From Daphnia carinata (Eukaryota), in contig NC_081331.1 of NCBI RefSeq assembly GCF_022539665.2, positions 13,206,001 to 13,270,000 on the forward strand: a stretch of DNA of 64,000 nt, read 5' to 3'. The notes beneath the pieces were generated by a model. It was not told the DNA's origin. It saw only the letters and a list, made by a program, of their open reading frames with translations, and ran no database searches. The position numbers and the translations under genes were made by a program. Positions within the stretch are counted from its first letter, which is position 1; every line of letters starts with the position of its first letter. Of this stretch, positions 1 through 25,900 are shown piece by piece.

Positions 1-2200
1 ATACACAGAGAAAGACCTGACCAAAAGGAAATGATTTCTTCCTTTTTTAAAGTACACGTTAAGCATTATTATACGTTCCCGATAAGTGGTCCCATATATT
101 ATTGATTGTTAGCGTTTGTTCTTATATAGCGGCACCAGAAAATTGTCAAAGTCAATCATATTTCCCTGCGGAAATGATGTTTTGAAAAGAAAAAAAATAT
201 GGAGAAAGACCGCTGCATATTAGAGAGAATATATGGGACCGTGACTGGTTTTTTTAAACTTCCTGTTTCCAATAGGTTTTTGGTATATAGCTACGTTACT
301 CTCTTTTTTTCTTCTTGTTTTCTTCTTCTTCTTCTTTTACGTTTCGGCTGATTAACATAATTCCCTGTTGCTGGCCGGTGGTTTCTTTGAGAAACTGACT
401 CGTAATCATTTTGGCAATGACGCCAGTCGGGCCATTTGTCACTCATTTGTCATGGTCGCACTTGGCTCAGCCCACACCGTGTTTCCAACACGTATACGAT
501 GTGCCCGACGCACATTTCCGGTCCAACCCTTTCTCTTTACGTCGCTCATTATGAATTCATTGGGAAACGCCAATTCGTCATGAAAAAGACATTGACCGTT
601 TCCTGCCCGTTTTCATTCATGAAAATGCCATTTGACTACCTTGGCCAATTGCGAGACGCATTTTCGCTATCACGCCGGACGACTTGCTGCCCTAAATAAA
701 TGCACGGTGGTGACACTGTATCCGTGGGCTATCAAGCCCCCATCCTACTTTGTTATGAAAATGAAACAAAATTGTGATTTCAAAATAGGGATTAATCTGG
801 TGGATAAACACATCAATGTGAATATCGTAAATGTGAGGCGATGAGATGCGCTATATCTAAGAACCGTTAGAGACCGGAGCTACTGGGATGGTACATCCGT
901 TGGTTGTTGTGTTGCTTATCCGTGTCTGCTGTAACCAATCCCGAAGATGGACCAATGGTGACTTTTCTTTTTTATTTGACAACTCCCAGTGGTTTCCCAA
1001 GATGCGCGGCGCATCCTCGTTCTCGATTCGATAAGTATCTTGTCTGCACGTTTCATCGCGCAGGTTCTATCGTCTTCACCCAAACGCATGTTCAATGGTG
1101 AGTCTAGGATCAAGATAAAAGGATGTAATAATCCGTTGATACATTTTCAATTAAACAGTAAATTTTTTATTGATTGTGGTTTTATTAACGTAGCTCTCGA
1201 ACGACGTTGTTTATGTAAGCAATTCTGCATAACTAACTGTATTTAACGCCAGACAGAACTTCCCCTTGCACGACGTAGAAGCAAAAGTTGTTTTGAATGT
1301 TACCGGTCTTCAATCAAAAGAAAAATTTGTGTTGTTTTTGATTTCTTAGCTGGAAATGATAAAAATTTTCAGTTCATGAAACACTCAACGATTAGGCAAA
1401 ATGTGAATATCTAAACGCGTAGTTTATTCACTTATTTCAATTTGTACACATTGCAATACTACACCATCTAGCGGTCTCAGCAACACTAGCCCTCTTACGT
1501 CCTCTATGAACCATTCTCTTTATCATTTCGCGTCTTAGAAAGGCATGGCCATTGCATTCAATGCCTACATCTGATATACAATGAACCACAGTCAGCCTAT
1601 GCCTAGAACGTGATTCAGGTAGAAATAGCAAACTTCGTGTAACTATAAAAATCTGAAAATTTTAAAAAAGCTGTGAACGTTGTGGTAGTATGTCTTTGGG
1701 CCAGTTGCCATCAGCCGTAGAAAATGGAAAACATTGCTTCTGTTGCTCTCGTTGTAGGCCTACCCATTATTTTCGGCGAAGTGCGAGAAATTAAACATGT
1801 TTGTTGCTCCCGTAAGCAAAAACACTATACTTGAACCGAATAATTGTTTTTTTTATTATTCTGTTCGAGTTATATCAGTTCAATATAAAAAATCGCAAAA
1901 AACATTTGGTAATATTTTGCTACATTTCGCAAATAAAATTTGATAGTGATGTAACATCAATTGCCTTGCATAGGTGGCAGTAATTTTTTCACTTTACATT
2001 TCAAAGTTTAGATTTTCCTAAAATCTAAGCTGTTCTTGTTTGGCAGCTATTTAATCGTAAAAATCATGATTAATTTGTTTTTACCCTTTCTGTCGTTCAT
2101 TGGCCGTTATCTAAACGAAAGGGAACAAAATGGCAACAACGTTGTGTCTTTAGGGATAAACCACTCGTCCTTAGGTGGTAGCATTTTTTTACAGCTTTAG

Positions 2201-2253: not shown

Positions 2254-4133
2254 ATGTCTCCGGTAAGAATAGTTCAAAAGTTATTTTATTTGGTGATGAT
2301 TAAGTCACGTGCGTTTAATATAACACATGCGTTTCATTACTGAATGGAAGATGCAACTAATGTACGTAGTATAAGAGTTTTTCTTCTATGGGTGCCCAAA
2401 TAACTAGCGCATCAACTACCAACCACGTTGTCGTTTATAGGAAGAAGTTAACTTTCTGATGCATCAGAAAAATCTTTTGAAACTGTACCAATGTTAAAAG
2501 ACTAATTTGATGAATGGTCTAAATTGGTTACATTAGTAAAAATTTTATTTTAAAAGAACATATTTTAAAATTCTTGTTTTGTAATAGGCAAAGAAAGCAC
2601 CAGCATCTGCTGAACCCAAGAAGGCTGCGCCCAAGGCTGCCCCAGCTGCCGCACCTGCTGCTGCTGCTGCTGCTAAGAAGCCAGCCGAGAAGGCCCCAGT
2701 GAAAGCTCCTGCTGCAGGAACTGCTAAAGCCCCTGCCCCAGCTCCAGTAACGAAGGCCTCAGCTCCAGTTGCTGCAAAGGCTGCCCCAGCTGTCGCTGCT
2801 CCTGCTAAAGGAGCCACAAAAGCAGCTCCAGCAAAGGCTTCTCCGGCACCAGCTAAGGCTGCCGCTGCCCCTACTAATAAAGCTGCTGCAACCACAGTTA
2901 AGGCTGCAACGACTGCTAAGGCTGCACCTGCGGCTACTTCTGCTGCCCCAAAGGCTGCACCAGGAAAAGCTGGAGCCAAACCAGTGGCTACCCCTGCTGC
3001 TGCGACAACCAAGAAAGGTGCTGCACCTGCTGATGCAGGCAAGAAAGAGGCTGCCGCTCCTGCTAAGAAGGGTGCTGCTGACAAAAAGGCTGCTCCAGCT
3101 GCAGCTCCTGCTGCAGCACCAGCCAAGAGAAAGGCTGATGCCCCTGCTGAAAAGAAGGCTCCTGTTGCTGAGAAGAAAGCAGCAGTTGAGAAAAAGCCTG
3201 CTGCAGTTGCTGCTCCCAAGAAGCCTGAAGCTGCAGCTAAGAAACCAGAGGCTGCTGCTAAAAAACCAGAAGCTGCTGCCAAGAAACCAACTGAGAAAAA
3301 AGCTGCCCCATTGAAGGCAGCTGTTAAGGCAAAGAAAGAGACCCCAAAGAAACTTGAGGGAGTCAAGATTAAAGGAAAGGGTTACAAGGGCAAGAAACTT
3401 AATCTTAAGTTCACCATTGACTGCACTCACCCTGTTGAAGATGGAATCATGAATGCAGCTGATTTTGTAAGTATCCTTTTTTTTTTTTTTCTACTTGGAC
3501 TTGTGTTCCAAGATACTAATGATATCCAGGTTAGGGTCATCTTCCCTAACAGGTTTGACTCATGATTCCTTAATTGGTATCAGTTAGGGTCACCTTCCCT
3601 AGAAGAGTCAGTGAAAACCAAGATCTTTGATTTTATTTCAGGAAACATACTTGAAGCAGCACATCAAACTGAACAAGAAAGTTGGCAATTTGGGAACACA
3701 CATCCAAACTGAGCTGGCAAAGAGCAAAATCATTGTTTCTTCAGATGTTCCATTCTCCAAGAGGTATTATTATTTCCTTGAAGTACATTTCTTCGTCTAT
3801 GATGACTTATCCGGAAAATTAACGAACTAGAGTCTCTGACTACTGATGTGTGGATTACTCTGAAGTTCAAAAATAATCCTGGATAGAGATAAAGTGTTCC
3901 TTGTGTTAAATTTACTTTTTGTTTTTAGGTATTTGAAGTACTTGACGAAACGTTACTTGAAGAAGAACAACCTCCGCGATTGGCTTCGAGTGGTTGCCAA
4001 TGGAAAGACTTCTTACGAGCTCAGATATTTCAACGTAAGTAGCAACAACACTATTAATGTTAGCTTTAATACTAAATACGAATTTTCTTAGATCAACAAT
4101 GAGGAAGAAGATGAAGATGATGATAAGGAATAA
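2254..4133 (+). CDS. RPL22: 60S ribosomal protein L22 (eL22) with long Ala/Lys/Pro-rich N-terminal extension, about 385 aa
   Basis: Exons 2254-2262, 2588-3466, 3642-3763, 3929-4034 and 4092-4133, all GT-AG and in frame. eL22 motifs [44 protein letters not shown] and YELRYF, plus an acidic tail. Confidence 0.97.
2290..2466 (+). ncRNA. Possible intronic box C/D snoRNA (RpL22 intron 1)
   Basis: C box GTGATGA at 2293-2299, CTGA at 2340-2343 and 2456-2459. The intron (325 nt) is long for this genome. No rRNA target recognised. Confidence 0.3.
3794..3868 (+). ncRNA. Intronic box C/D snoRNA, SNORD52/snR78-like
   Basis: C box ATGATGA 3799-3805, D' CTGA 3836-3839, C'-like TGATG 3844-3848, D CTGA 3860-3863, about 65 nt before the 3' splice site. 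The guide AACTAGAGTC before D' is complementary to the conserved LSU rRNA GACUCUAGU(U). Confidence 0.8.
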
Positions 4134-4630: not shown

Positions 4631-7600
4631 CTATCGACGATTCAAATCTAAATCTTCCATGAAGGAAGTTAAATTCAGACGAATCTTTTTACTGCCTTGA
4701 CTTACGCACTGAAGAAGATTCATCATCTGCCTAGGAGTATATTCCTTCACAAACGCAAAAAAGAAAGATATTACAAATTGCTGACGGAGCGAAATACTTA
4801 CAGTATTAACGCTAATTTTGTTTAAGTTACCGTTTGTTCTTGAATCCATTTTTCCAAAGAATTTTCAGGTAAATAATATGCTTTTATGTATGTTTCGACA
4901 ATGGATGGGTCCGGAAGAGGTCTTAGACGGGTCAAGCTTTCCACTTTAACTTGAAAATGCCTGAAGTCTAACTGCATTAACGCACGACCTTCGTTGGTGC
5001 ATTTTCTTACAGCGGAAAATCTAAAGAATTTCAAATCGGATATGGTCTGACATAAAGGTGCGTAAAATAAACTAGAATACCCGTCAAGTAGCGTATGGTA
5101 ACAGGCACGAAGAATTTGATCCCATAAAATGTTGTAAATTTCAGGAGGCAGAATCAGAGGATAGCAGATACGAAGGACACTGGAATCGTAATCACTGAGA
5201 ACCTGCGAAAGATGAAATAAGAAATACATCAGAGAGGGAATTATGGAGGAAACGAACCGACGAAAAGAGAACGCTAGAGTTACGGACTTATTACTACTAC
5301 GATACCTACGCAATCGCCCGATAGAGTAACGCCCATCCGCTACCACAGGACATCAATAAAAATTGGAGGGAGACCGGAAGCGGAAAGAGTAAAACAACAG
5401 AAAGAGGGACAATAATCGGTAGAATGACAAAACAAGCTTTTCCCCCTCCCTACCTACATGGTGCAACGATATTTCTGGACCCATTCAATTGGACGCCAGC
5501 CTCCCTTACAACTGGATCGCATAACTTATCCGTGAACATGGGTCCTACACTTCGGGTAACTGCTTTCTTAACGCTATTCTTGTGCAGTGCAACACTGGAA
5601 TGGAACGCTCATTCACTTTTACAACCTGGAACTTGTCCTCAGTCGAAGTCGATGCCATTCCTAGACATTCATCAGGTAGGGTTAAGTGAACGGAAGGTAG
5701 TGAACAATATTTTACTCGATTAATCACTCGAAATTTGCCTTCAACAAGATAACAGGGAGATGGATAATACAACAACTTCCTTGGCCGTTTCCGCAGTGTT
5801 GTCGGCAACCAACTTTAAATTTCGAGGAAGAAATTCTGGATCAGAAAAAAGTCAGTAACGAAACGCAGCCCGTTTGGATTAGAATGACAATAGATTTTCC
5901 AAGTTGTAAAAACGAACAAGAGACGTGGCAGCATCCACTAAATTGGCGTCTTTTGCAAAATCGTATGAATGAAGGCATCTTTCTGGTTAAACTACCCTGG
6001 CCCCTAGGTATGAAAATAATACGAAACATACTTTGCTTGCCTTAGAATAATTTTTGTCAACCCATCAGACGTTGTTGGTGTTGCTACGCTGAATTTCGTT
6101 TCGACCGACTATAAAAAATTTGCAATCGCATACATTTGCCATAATCTTCTTCTTGAACATATTACGATTCCGTTCATTATGGTCCGGATGCAGACTGAGC
6201 TAGACTTCACCTACTGGCAACGTATGAAATGGGCTTTGATAAAACAAGTAGGTATATATTTTATGTCGAGGCTGCAGATAATCTAAACGAAGCTGCGCTA
6301 TTTAACATAGGGCGTCTTATCTGCGTGGGCCCTTACGGAGACAAAGGGTCAATGTAACGAAGTATTCGATTATAGCGCTGAAGATCTATTTTACGAAAAC
6401 CATTCTAACAGCTCGGATAACTACCCTGTCAAAGACTCGACCGAATCAAGTTCTGCTGCTACAGCGGCAATTATTGATGGGCTGATTTTAAAGAAAGTTC
6501 AGCACGGCGGAGATGAAAAAACTACGGAAATTGCCGTTATGGATCCCGATGCCGAGTGGATAACGACAGAAAATTTTCAGGTACGTGCAGAGGGGATTCT
6601 CACAAAATACTTTAATTGAAATTTTCCTCCCTAAAAAACTATTTTTGGAACCAGAAACCAGACTATCCGCCTCAAAACAGCGGACTTTGGCCAGCCATTT
6701 TAATTGAAAATGAGCCTGAGTCGGACCACGCAATAGGCAATCCCAATAAGATCCCTGCTGCTGAAATAGCGCCACTGGTTGCGCCTTCGCTGGCCACATC
6801 GGCTAGGAATTAAGAAAAGCCAAACGCTACTAGGAAAGAAGAGTTGAATGAGATCATCTTACCTGCAATATATGATCTACGTAGGAACTATGTTGGCTCA
6901 TTACTTCCTTGACCTCCCACTGAACACGACTCATCAAATTTGTTATGTGTTCTGAATCAAGATGCCTGTGGGCAACAAAACTGAAGATCGGTGTTCGTAG
7001 ATCATGAGCCACTGATGTAATCTGCAAGAGATATGGAATAAATGTGAGCGGAAACAGCAAGATGAAATAAGATTTTAAATTAAAAATGAAACAAACTTGT
7101 GAAAAGAATTGCTGGAGGAGAGATTCTTTCGATGATGGAATCAAATCCAGGAGATTGGGCCTCAGCAGCTCTAACTGATGAGCAAGGAAAACAACTGATT
7201 CGGCTGCTACTAAACGGAGTTTTAGCCCGTAAAAGTGATTAGGATGATCCGTTTGCGTAGAAAGGCAGACTTTTGGACATGACACTTTATCACTGAGAGA
7301 CGGCGAGAACGCTGCAGTATCTTCGTGAGAGCCAGCGCTTCCTGGAGCGGCAGTTGAAATTAAAGTCTCTTCGATTTTCAGGAGAACAGCGCGAAGCTTT
7401 GGAGAAGTTGCATCCTGTGGTGACGCAGCTCCAAACAGTTTATAAACTGCATACAAATAATAATCAAACAATTGGTTCAGGCAAATCAGCACATCGAACG
7501 CGATTGTTTTCAACAAATGCATAAAATGTATGTATCGTCCAAATAGGCGCAGAACAGATAAAGTTGTGTTCGCCAGAATTGGTGTTGGAGATCCACAACC

Positions 7601-9393
7601 TATTTTACGCTCATCGTTACACTCGCAAGAACTTTCTGAAATTTCCGATGGACAAATGATAGAGTCTTCAGCTGACGAAATCGCACGTGACGCAAACGGT
7701 GAAAGAACTGAACCCAAGGCATAAAAGTTCGCATCAGAAGGCTTCTCGACGTTACAGGTTAAAGATTTATCTTTCTGATTGAGAAACCGAAATTCGATCA
7801 ACTGAAACACGTTGAAATCCGAGCGCACTGGGCATTGCTCCCACGATTCATTTTCTAAGAAAACGTGAAGTTCATCCAGTTTTCCACGATGAAAGCCCCG
7901 GAAGTAGTTTATACTTTGCCGGCGAACGCTTTCCCTTAAAACCTCGGAGTTACTTTGGCAAAATTGCTTTCCCATATCAACTAGGGTTTCTACAATGTCT
8001 AGCATATCGAGCAATTCATCGGTGCTGAGATGCCATACGTCAAACGAAGATAGCAAAGTCCGAATCTTCATTTGGACATCTTGCCATAGGCGTGTTCTTC
8101 CATGCTGAAATTTTTGTTCGAATGAAACAGAGGGCATTATGTCAGCAGCATCCACTGTTGGCCGATCGGTATGCCACTGATGGATTTGATTATAGTTCAG
8201 TGTAATTTTCCATAAAGTGGTGCTCAGCTCGGATAGACATGCCACATAAAGCTTCGAATCAATAAATTTGCAAAGTTCATGGAACTGAAATTTATGGAAG
8301 TCTGTGGCAGCTTCTACATCCGGGTTTGCTGATGATCGACTGGAGCACGAAAGTTCTGCATACTTTTGTAAAAGCAACAACGTTTGCTGTTGAAGTCCTG
8401 ATGCAAAATGAAGGTTTAGTTGGTCAATTGCTGCTGATTGTTTTCCAAGTAATGTGAATGCCTGCTGTAACTTTGCATACTGATCTGAATCAAATTCTTT
8501 ACAAGATTTTGATAGGCCAACATCAAGTTGTTCTTCTGCAAGCTCCATAGTATCTTGCAGGCGTGAGCTCAACTGGGCAACACAATGGAAATGTCTGTAT
8601 GTAGTTGCAACATGTTGACCCTCAACTATAAGCTGTATGGCTGCAGCATAATTTTGTTCTCCAAGGAGTTCTTGAACCCTTTCATTCATCTTCCCCAATG
8701 TTTGAATGGTTTTCAAAGATTTTGTTATCTTTCTCAGATGATGCTGACGCCTATAATGGGCTAATAGTCCTAGGCTTGCAGCAGTCAAATTGCTTCTTGC
8801 TTGACTAAAAAAACAAAATTGAAGGAGAATCATCAATAATGCACATTTACTGACCAGCCAAAAATAAGATACTTTATATTGCTGCGCCCAGTAGTACATA
8901 TTTCTAATGCCTGAAAAAAAAAGTCCAATATGTATGATTACAGAAAAGATCCCAATTATTCAACATAACTTACTGAATCAAGACTTTCCTGCAGCTCAAG
9001 GACTTTACAAAGTTCTGAGGCACAACAGGTTTGCTTTTGATAAATCATGGTATACAATTTGTTTGTAACACAACCCAACTGAATCCCCAAGAGTTGTCTT
9101 TGGTGCCTGATGTAATTCAAATCAATTACAGAAGGAAATTTGTTTAATTGATATCGTCCTCCATTGCAGTTTTCGTCAACAAATCCTGCTTCTATTGTAT
9201 CAAAAACCTCCTGCTGAGAATCAGGATCTGAACAAGTATCTTGAAGCACACGTAAAGATTCGCGGTCAAAACTTTTGATTTCTGCCAGCGATAGTCCAAG
9301 TTGTTCTTCAGCAGGTGCTGCAACGGACGAAGGTAAGTCTCCCACTTCTTTAGACAAAGTCAACAAATCTATAACTTTCTGACGCAGATCCAT
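4631..9393 (-). CDS. VPS50: Syndetin / VPS50 (CCDC132), EARP complex subunit
   Basis: Multi-exon. Motifs FLENESWEQCPV, LANTTLSVLRLFGRY, FDYYLYAVY, LVAAESVVFLA, QHSSYVD, VRKCTNEGRALMQLDF, YIKAYYLPE and EYTPRQM. The intron 6862-5203 is unusually long (1660 nt). Confidence 0.93.
5538..6813 (+). CDS. Secreted lipocalin (apolipoprotein D-like) with acidic C-terminal extension, about 334 aa, nested in a VPS50 intron
   Basis: Exons 5538-5675, 5749-6007, 6069-6247, 6311-6580 and 6655-6813 join in frame through GT-AG introns. Hydrophobic signal peptide, GTCP...FLD..ITGRW (SCR1 GxW), STDYKKFAIAYIC (SCR2 TDY) and a C-terminal Cys (KGQC). Confidence 0.88.
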
Positions 9394-22903: not shown

Positions 22904-25900
22904 TTATTTAGTCGGTGTAATTGCAGCCTTGCGATTGCGATCAGCTGGCCGGACGTAGGTGGCACCTCCAGCCTTTTCCCACTCTCGAACGAATTCGTGT
23001 TCTAATATTTCTGCTCCTCTCTTACGAGTCAAGCCTGTTTCATCAAGACTTAACTCGCACATTTGCATGTCGTCACGACCAGCAACTAGTAAAACAGGAG
23101 ACTTGTCTGGATGCAACTCCATCTGCCTTGCAATCCATTGCCCATCAAAATGGGCGTACCAATATCCCTTTTTATCGGCAGGTGCACTGTTGCTAGAATC
23201 TGCATTTGGTTTAACAAATGGAATACGAAAGAATCGCTGTGCATCGGACGGAACCATCACTGATGCCCTGGGTCGAAGTACTGGTTTGCTAGCAGCATCC
23301 AATACCTAGGCAAAGATGAAAGAATTTAAGAAAACGTTTTGAATATTTGAATAAAATAATAATAATAATAATAAATAGAAGGAATACGATGTAGAAAAAA
23401 AAAATTAAAAACGTACAGCTTGGGGCACCCTCTGGTTCTCGTCCATTACGGCAGTTCGCTTTTTATTGCGAGCTTTCCATGCGTGGTAAACTTTTAAACG
23501 GCGATGAAATTCTTCTCGACAAGCCTACCAAAAAAGAATAAGAACGATTATGTAATCGATATTAGTGGTCTGAGAATGGTCGGCTACAGTACCTCAAGCA
23601 ATTCAATATCGCAAGATGTATTGATAGTGTCACGCAGCTCAGAATATTTCCATTTCGAGAGGTCATATTTTTTTCCTGCGTACGCAGCTCTTTGCAGCAT
23701 AACAACATCTGAGCGACGCAGTTGACTGCTTAGATCAGCATCATCCACTTGTCCATTGGTTTCCTGGGCAAGACGGAGAGCCAGCTCATGATCACGTCGT
23801 TCTTGCTCCAGTTGTTCCAACAGACGAGTTTGATTGACACCGTTGCGTTCCAGTTCAGCTTGCAGTTGTTCGGCGGCCTGGCGGTCATCCTCTTCTTGCT
23901 TTTTTCGTGTTTCCTCTTCCACTTTACGTTTAATTTCCATTTCTGCTCTCTTTCTCCGGTGCTCTTCTTCTTCCAGTCGCTTTTGCTCCTCTTCCTCTTT
24001 TCGTCGACGTTCACGAGCCATCTCTTCTTGGATTTTCCTTAATTTCTCTTGCTCTTCTGCCGATTTCTGCTGTTCTACTTTAGCTTTAAGAGTTTTCATA
24101 TGTTCGTCAGCCTGTTGCTCGAGTTTGACAAGGACCATCTTTATTTCCTTTTCAGTAATACGTTCGTTCATTTTAAACGACTGGGCAGCGTTTTCCAGAT
24201 CGGCTTGCAACTTCTGCATTTGTTGCACTGAAATTTGTTTATCCTTCAACTGATGAACAATCCTTTCTGATTGTTGGACGGACTGCTGAAGGGCCCGTAC
24301 TTGACGCAACGCCATGATTCGAGGACGGTATCTCTTACGAGCCAAATGCATTCGGACGGTTTTTTGTATAATAATTAATTGCTTGGCTCGGTACAGGATT
24401 TTATTCTTCAGCTTGATGACGCTGAGCGCACACCACTGAGCTTTCTTCCAGCGTGATTTCAATAACCATTGTCTAACGAGATTGACGAGTTTGCGCAAAT
24501 GGTCTGGATCAGACCGCATCAGTGTATCGAACTCGGCGAATTTTCCCGGACGGAAAAAGACTTTTGTCAAGCCAAATTTAAAATCTTGATCGTTAAGGTT
24601 TAACGCTGAAAATTAAAAATACACGGTGTTAAAACTGTCATTCAAATAGTACGTGCTTTCTAAGGCAAGACTAACCTTGGAAAAGTGACCTGCAGAATAG
24701 ACGGGGATCAAGGCGGGCAAGTTGAGGTGGCAATATACTTTTATAGATATTGTATAAATCGATAAATGGGGCTCTCGATGGGTAACCCTGTTGCATCAGT
24801 TCCAAAACTGATGTCATTCCTGAACACTGAAGCTGCGAGAGAATTTGTCCCCCTTCGAACAGATGATCAACCATCTTGAGATTAGGCTTAACACAACGGA
24901 TGAAATTTGTCCCGGTGCTCCGTAGTTTTTCCATCAGTTCATTGAGTTGCATTCGAAACTTGGAACCGACACTAATGAAAGACAATTTTCCTTTCCACTG
25001 CTGTGAGCTGCTACTTGTAGAGGAGACGAATAAACCTGCAAAACCGTTTTATTTTAACCACGTAATTCAGCCTAAAAACCGGTTTAATTAAATACCTTTA
25101 AGGAATGGGTTGTGGCTGTCTTGGATAATACATTCCAGGGAAGCATGAAGGGCGTCATTATTTTTCTCAATGAATTTGGCCGTTTGGTAGCAAACAGCGC
25201 CAGCAAAATGGCGGATTAGAAAGCCTTCATCATCGCGTATTTCCCGGTGATCCCGCAATTTCGATTTTCGCGGCAGAGCTAAACGGAAGTGATTAGGATT
25301 GGCCGAATGAACGGTGGAAGTGAAGTGTGTGTGACTCGATTTCGGAAGTTTTGATTCTTCATCAAGGATACAAAAAATTCCACTGGTACGAGCCTCAATC
25401 AGATCGATGCAATCTTGGTTATCAACATACACAATTTTTTTCACGCCTAGTCCCTCCTTCTCATACAAACACTGTTCTTCCTTTAGTATGCGTTCATTGA
25501 AAAACTGCTGGAGCTTTTCATTGCAATAGTTGATGCAAAATTGCTCAAAACTATTAACGGTGAAATACTCGAAGCCTGCTATATCTAATACACCGACGTA
25601 ATGCACGGATGATTGGAATGGAATGCTTTGATTGATCCGATGAACAATATAGTCAAAAAGACGACTGTAAATTGCTTTTGCTAGCGCATCACGAGCATTG
25701 TTGGCTTCGAATACCTAAGTGCACGAAACGTAAATGTATATAAAAAAGACGTATCAAGTGCCAATAAGTGAAATTACCTTAAGTGGTACCATGATGACGG
25801 TGCCCTTTATCCCTCCTTTACTTGGTTGCATAACTCGAGAAAGCAGAGCGTGATGAAGCTCTTCTGGATCCACACCAATCAAAGCAGAGGCATTTCGCAA

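Follow-up and report, generated by a model that had tools for sequence, protein, structure and literature searches.

A conserved hairpin element beside an alternative acceptor in intron 2 of a Daphnia RpL22 gene resembles the RPL22L1 splicing switch

The closest described system is the splicing of human RPL22L1, in which intron 2 offers an alternative 3′ site (exon 3A, or variant 3) that gives a truncated form of 63-64 amino acids (bioRxiv 10.1101/2024.08.15.608201). According to this preprint, use of the truncated form rises with RPL22 and the form is stabilised by an inhibitor of nonsense-mediated decay (NMD). The alternative site is described there as being overlapped by two stem loops, with an RPL22 CLIP peak at the same place (bioRxiv 10.1101/2024.08.15.608201). 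A second account agrees on RPL22L1 splicing but reports no CLIP peak on RPL22L1 (PMC12035866). Studies of the human RPL22-to-RPL22L1 switch treat it as a circuit between vertebrate paralogs and as a dependency in cancer. The published eL22 motif consists of a stem loop with a G-C pair at the neck followed by U (PMC3750023), and the consensus eL22 hairpin is described as present in higher eukaryotes and not in yeast (PMC13630204). Further background on eL22 includes a review (PMC8047918).

The window analyzed here, a 64-kb stretch of Daphnia carinata DNA, contains an RpL22/eL22 gene at 2254..4133 on the + strand, recognized from its translation and its PF01776 relatives. Its five coding exons (2254-2262, 2588-3466, 3642-3763, 3929-4034, and 4092-4133, +) encode 385 amino acids, and all three downstream joints are present in RNA contigs of relatives. 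Intron 2 (3467..3641, +) is a productive U2-type GT-AG intron of 175 nt in phase 0. The protein carries a very long Ala/Lys/Pro-rich N-terminal extension of about 260 amino acids (2588-3380, +), and its 385 amino acids exceed the length of every one of the 35 relatives found (163-265 aa). Intron 3 holds a Box C/D snoRNA-like sequence (3795-3853, +; boxes ATGATGA ... CTGA) with a weak Rfam match to snR78 (25.6 bits against a gathering threshold of 48, E 0.41). Its boxes and a 13-nt guide-like stretch are retained in a related locus, L015, where the surrounding flanks have diverged. At the gathering threshold, Rfam gave no matches across the 64-kb window. Among the neighbors are a gene for a PF10474/PF10475 coiled-coil protein (6854-8959, -) and a gene that we take, from its ORF sequence, to be myosin-like (23584-25714, -); the product of one neighboring gene shares 98% identity with a UniRef entry that bears the name of Daphnia magna, to which the window is close.

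Splice junctions were read from the RNA of relatives rather than of the window's own species. The 24 runs, mostly from close relatives, contained 8-16% of the window's words, and four of them (X1, X2, X6, and X24) gave junction data; X2 and X6 come from two studies of one close relative, here called organism B. The RNA status of the runs is presumed, their contigs omit rare forms, and contig depth is a poor gauge of level. The productive joint from 3466 to 3642 is present in all four runs. A single further GT..AG joint within intron 2, among the 15 joints listed of 27, leads from 3466 to 3530, with a depth of 79.9 in X2 (vs 142.1 for the canonical joint) and 8.4 in X6 (vs 77.5). This joint was neither seen in X1 nor listed for X24, two runs without intron cover, which are hence not counted as evidence of absence.

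Use of this joint removes a short alternative U2-type intron of 63 nt (3467..3529, +), which shares the productive donor and ends at the upstream acceptor CAG 3527-3529. What remains is a poison segment of 112 nt (3530..3641, +) that forms a 5′ extension of exon 3 in the X2 contig, which is continuous over 3530-3671, past the 3466-to-3530 joint. The segment contains a TGA stop at 3563-3565, 198 nt above the next junction, and the corresponding extension in L015 likewise contains a stop, after 20 codons. As in the RPL22L1-type switch, an upstream 3′ site is thus used in RNA, that of organism B, and a premature stop follows. A 23-nt microexon at 3530-3552 was considered and ruled out, since the X2 contig runs unbroken through 3553. 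The predicted branch for the 3529 acceptor is a U2-type, branch-point-like TACTAAT (3514..3520, +). Its distance of 10 nt to the CAG downstream is small compared with the 18-40 nt given for U2 branches (PMC3291851).

Two hairpins of the form YUAGGG-N7-CCCUAR adjoin the 3529 acceptor, and both are predicted eL22 sites. Hairpin 1 (3530..3550, +) pairs 3530-36 with 3544-50 around a 7-nt loop ending in UU, and its core pairs have a probability of about 1.0 in the predicted fold. Hairpin 2 (3584..3602, +) pairs 3584-89 with 3597-3602, also around a 7-nt loop. Stem loops of the eL22-binding type, with a G-C neck and an adjacent U, are therefore found at the alternative acceptor, as in RPL22L1. A predicted three-way junction (3555..3611, +) encloses hairpin 2 together with a side hairpin at 3563-3582, for which L015 has different letters and the same predicted shape. 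No Rfam family describes the hairpins at E values up to 5. With a 7-nt loop, the 5′ YAG of hairpin 1 could itself serve as an acceptor, in which case its 3′ TAR would be an in-frame stop four codons on, an arrangement present in the window and in 15 of 17 loci. This pattern may be a mere consequence of stem symmetry, and no joint at the hairpin's own 5′ AG was seen among the joints listed.

To survey conservation, metagenome contigs were pattern-scanned for the exon 2 end with GT directly behind it; genes lacking this intron or this peptide escape such a scan, and the sample is accordingly biased. The scan yielded 70 loci, four of which were unrelated and dropped (scores 33-36 vs 82 or more); a complete intron lies within the flank in 20 of the 66 kept, and the remaining 46 are incomplete. 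Of the 20 complete introns, 17 (12 lineages once near-duplicates are collapsed) carry the motif YUAGGG-N7(6-8)-CCCUAR one to three times within their last 130 nt, with 31 matches in the 2,549 nt of these end segments vs none in the remaining 58,084 nt of the loci. L015, whose protein is 99% identical over 70 columns, has kept the TACTAAT, the 3529 CAG, and both hairpins, and the rest of its intron has diverged. An alignment of 26 of the 33 hairpin copies, with duplicates left out and copies chosen on the core motif, has 87.6% of its cells paired, a value reached in none of 500 shuffles. The four core pairs and the final loop UU are invariant in all 26 hairpins, the invariance of the core, not that of the UU, being subject to the selection of copies. 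Pair 5-22 changes between UA and CG; the count of doubly changed pairs does not exceed that in shuffles (146/500), and the four core pairs, since they never vary, carry no covariation signal. The resulting hairpin model matches only this intron across the 64-kb window and the 70 loci, twice in the window; among the 46 incomplete introns, 3 contain additional copies. Of 13 lineage representatives, 11 have a branch-like YTRAY at a distance of 9-30 nt upstream of the first hairpin's AG (background 17%) and 2 have one before the canonical AG, this distance range having been picked post hoc with the sequences already inspected. In locus L050, a further hairpin, degenerate and with an enlarged loop, lies just upstream of positions 1224-1247 (+); it escapes the motif count and is preceded by a TACTAAC branch motif.

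It is conceivable that the hairpins serve as a fixed aid to structure or as the target of another factor, and that the 3529 acceptor represents unregulated noise in a highly expressed gene. Across runs, the alternative joint does vary between none seen and roughly one third of joint depth, and library type could account for this variation. Nevertheless, such a reading is quite improbable given a loop UU and four core pairs that do not vary in any of 26 hairpins, an element found only in this gene's intron across the window and the 70 loci, and a vertebrate counterpart reported to be RPL22-dependent (bioRxiv 10.1101/2024.08.15.608201).

The hairpins also extend to vertebrate-type genes. Locus L024 matches bird RPL22L1 with 100% identity in exon 3 and has two hairpins in its intron, as do L030 and L065, which cluster with L024 in the protein tree (support 99/98). 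The Daphnia element and that of L024 occupy an identical codon position and phase, in the intron before the exon-3 equivalent. Furthermore, the human intron-2 primer of the RPL22L1 preprint begins with the hairpin motif, differing at 3 of 16 positions from each window hairpin and at none from one hairpin of locus L051. Hairpins are absent from L019, from its sister L023, and from the 79-nt intron of L064. A PDB search placed L019 near vertebrate eL22 and gave no identity for L024. The contrast between RPL22 and RPL22L1 in hairpin content is one of two vs three loci. L023, which is of vertebrate RPL22 type, shows a change in a conserved motif and an exon-3 translation that diverges, and may be a decayed copy, which weakens its value as a hairpin-negative control. 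With 70 columns and 5 of 18 inner branches well supported, the protein tree shows the spread of the element only, not the order of events. The presence of hairpins in the matching intron of distant eL22 genes, the crustacean poison junction, and the lack of hairpins at two vertebrate loci of RPL22 type suggest a self-limiting eL22 loop of old origin that would have been kept by RPL22L1 and lost by RPL22 after duplication.

We consider it likely that excess eL22 binds the hairpins of its own intron and moves the major spliceosome from 3641 to 3529, with degradation of the stop-bearing message. One major-spliceosome donor (3467) would serve both the productive acceptor at 3641 and the upstream one at 3529. 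Free eL22 would bind the two conserved hairpins beside the 3529 acceptor and, once bound, steer splicing to it, adding the premature stop. The stop-bearing RpL22 message would then be destroyed by nonsense-mediated decay, such that L22 would limit its own production. Both junctions are seen in relatives' contigs, and the stop, the hairpins, and their conservation are observed as well; by analogy with human RPL22L1 work, eL22 would bind, shift splicing in this direction, and trigger decay. Alternatively, eL22 on the hairpins might mainly block splicing, causing retention, or act via a stable intronic RNA, which would make the 3529 joint a by-product. Precedents are described for yeast RPL22 and fly RpL22, one X6 contig (3439-3552) reads through the donor into the intron, and a retained intron 2 would meet the same stop at 3563-65. 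However, this contig has a low depth (19.9) and may stem from pre-mRNA or DNA, X2 gave no retention contig yet gave the 3530 joint, and the branch-like motif immediately upstream of hairpin 1 is conserved; retention or a stable intron is accordingly an unlikely main mode of action.

A different origin for the poison isoform had been proposed in the preliminary description, namely a U12-type intron nested within the U2-type intron. The letters on which this proposal was built are all present. The U2 donor GTAAGT at 3467-3472 overlaps a U12-like donor, GTATCCTTT, at 3471..3479 (+), and a U12-like branch, TTCCTTAAT, at 3566..3574 (+) is followed by CAG at 3581-3583 and TGA at 3628-3630. Excising 3471-3583 indeed leaves 62 extra nt, with a peptide that reads as predicted. 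GTATCCTTT matches the U12 5′ splice-site consensus RTATCCTT and occurs once in the 64-kb window, both strands counted. An AG lies 10 nt (3583) and another 14 nt (3587) below the branch A3573 of TTCCTTAAT, near enough for a U12 branch, for which a distance of 12-15 nt to the acceptor is given (PMC3291851).

To estimate how often such a pairing arises by chance, the intron body was dinucleotide-shuffled 300,000 times with the leading GTAAGT kept constant. A strict U12 donor arose in 133 of these shuffles and a strict branch with AG in 3,074; strict donor and branch never arose together (the product of their rates is about 5e-6), and loose donor and loose branch did so in 21 (7e-5). The pairing is therefore rare for a single intron. 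A genome has introns of the order of 1e5, so that roughly 0.5 to 7 chance donor/branch pairs are expected per genome. In the U2 consensus, the GT of the U12-like donor falls on positions +5/+6, and the TTT of this donor opens a long T run. The preliminary description had likewise allowed for a chance match in view of the T tract. The letters of the U12-like branch form an arm and the loop of the side hairpin 3563-3582 in the predicted fold. A scan of the window for further U12-like donor/branch pairs returned two loose minus-strand candidates, which carry no weight for or against a minor spliceosome.

A U12-type intron, whether 3471-3583 or 3471-3587, that competes with the U2-type intron and yields the poison isoform is favored by the perfect donor and branch consensus, which rarely co-occur by chance, and by organism B, which has no listed substitution in either motif, the donor being covered there by a single contig that has three gaps at positions not shown. 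A TAG at 3585-87, 14 nt below the branch A, remains in organism B as a possible acceptor, and U2/U12 twintrons with NMD products are known, such as PRMT1 (PMC3564746). Nevertheless, the alternative joint observed runs from the U2 donor to CAG 3527-29, and none of the 15 listed joints (of 27) begins at 3470 in these relatives' runs, from which rare forms are dropped. A joint at 3470 appears in none of five X2 contigs and neither of two X1 contigs, and the X2 contig passes both 3584 and 3588 without a break. In organism B, G3583 is replaced by A (248 of 262 depth in X6 and all of X2), turning CAG into CAA and removing the proposed U12 acceptor. The motifs had been expected to recur in orthologous introns. 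Donor, branch, and 3583 CAG are lost from L015 and absent from the other readable loci: a U12 donor stands at +1 or +5 in none of 66 loci, 29 of which start with GTAAGT, and a TCCTTRAY branch in none of the 20 complete introns. The signals appear to be kept just in the very close organism B, there without CAG3583. Moreover, the 3529 acceptor already supplies the poison role, and the minor spliceosome of D. pulex has been doubted, with no U12 snRNP protein reported as found (PMC4202315). D. pulicaria appears, by its species label, in a figure on minor-intron loss (PMC10639083).

A nested, competing U12-type intron is thus very improbable, and the U12-like donor and branch motifs in RpL22 intron 2 are most likely incidental. 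A premature-stop isoform, as anticipated earlier, is supported, together with eL22-type hairpins; its attribution to the minor spliceosome is not. Equally improbable is a de novo U12 intron that would have arisen inside an ancient eL22 hairpin switch of the Daphnia lineage as a second, rare poison route (3471-3583/3587), its acceptor set by hairpin 2; if this were true, RpL22 output would be sensitive to minor-spliceosome activity. A U11-binding splicing enhancer (USSE), as in SNRNP48/RNPC3, was also considered and rejected: there is a single U12 5′ site and it lies upstream of the 3529 acceptor, whereas in a USSE, U12 5′ sites occur in tandem and follow the U2 acceptor that they activate (PMC8329584). 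No paper tying RpL22 to a U12 intron was found in the literature searched, which left out most subscription papers. A twintron would have been the more surprising outcome.

In the same literature, no report of the hairpin switch in invertebrates was found. To this known type of switch, RpL22 intron 2 adds a crustacean poison junction, a survey of 20 introns, an upstream branch signal, and a contrast between RPL22L1 and RPL22 that involves few loci. The hairpin alignment also defines the RNA motif of eL22 more sharply than the loose motif published to date.

Among known systems, the nested U12 consensus and a predicted NMD product recall the U2/U12 twintrons of Drosophila prospero, ZRSR2/Urp, and PRMT1 (PMC3564746, PMC3291851). 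Those twintrons, as described, are supported by transcripts and in most cases involve a U12 intron that is ancestral and conserved (PMC3564746, PMC3291851), whereas RpL22 intron 2 is an ancestral U2-type intron with unconserved motifs and no U12 joint among those listed. In yeast RPL22A/B, eL22 reads the structure of its own intron and lowers productive splicing, as it would here (PMC4838235, PMC5755908), but the yeast system is described as differing in its imperfect stem, its inhibition of splicing, and its alternative 5′ site (PMC13630204). Drosophila circRpL22 is likewise an intron-derived RpL22 RNA bound by eL22 and autoregulatory, as proposed for Daphnia (Ng et al., 2024, cited in PMC11883427), although it is a stable circular intronic RNA rather than the product of an alternative acceptor (PMC11883427). 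The Daphnia element differs from human RPL22L1 in that its stop falls inside the extension and in that it belongs to an invertebrate RpL22 gene, for which the loop would be autoregulatory rather than a cross-regulation between paralogs. With human RPL22L1 it shares the intron position (via L024), two stem loops at an upstream acceptor, the hairpin motif, and a premature stop.
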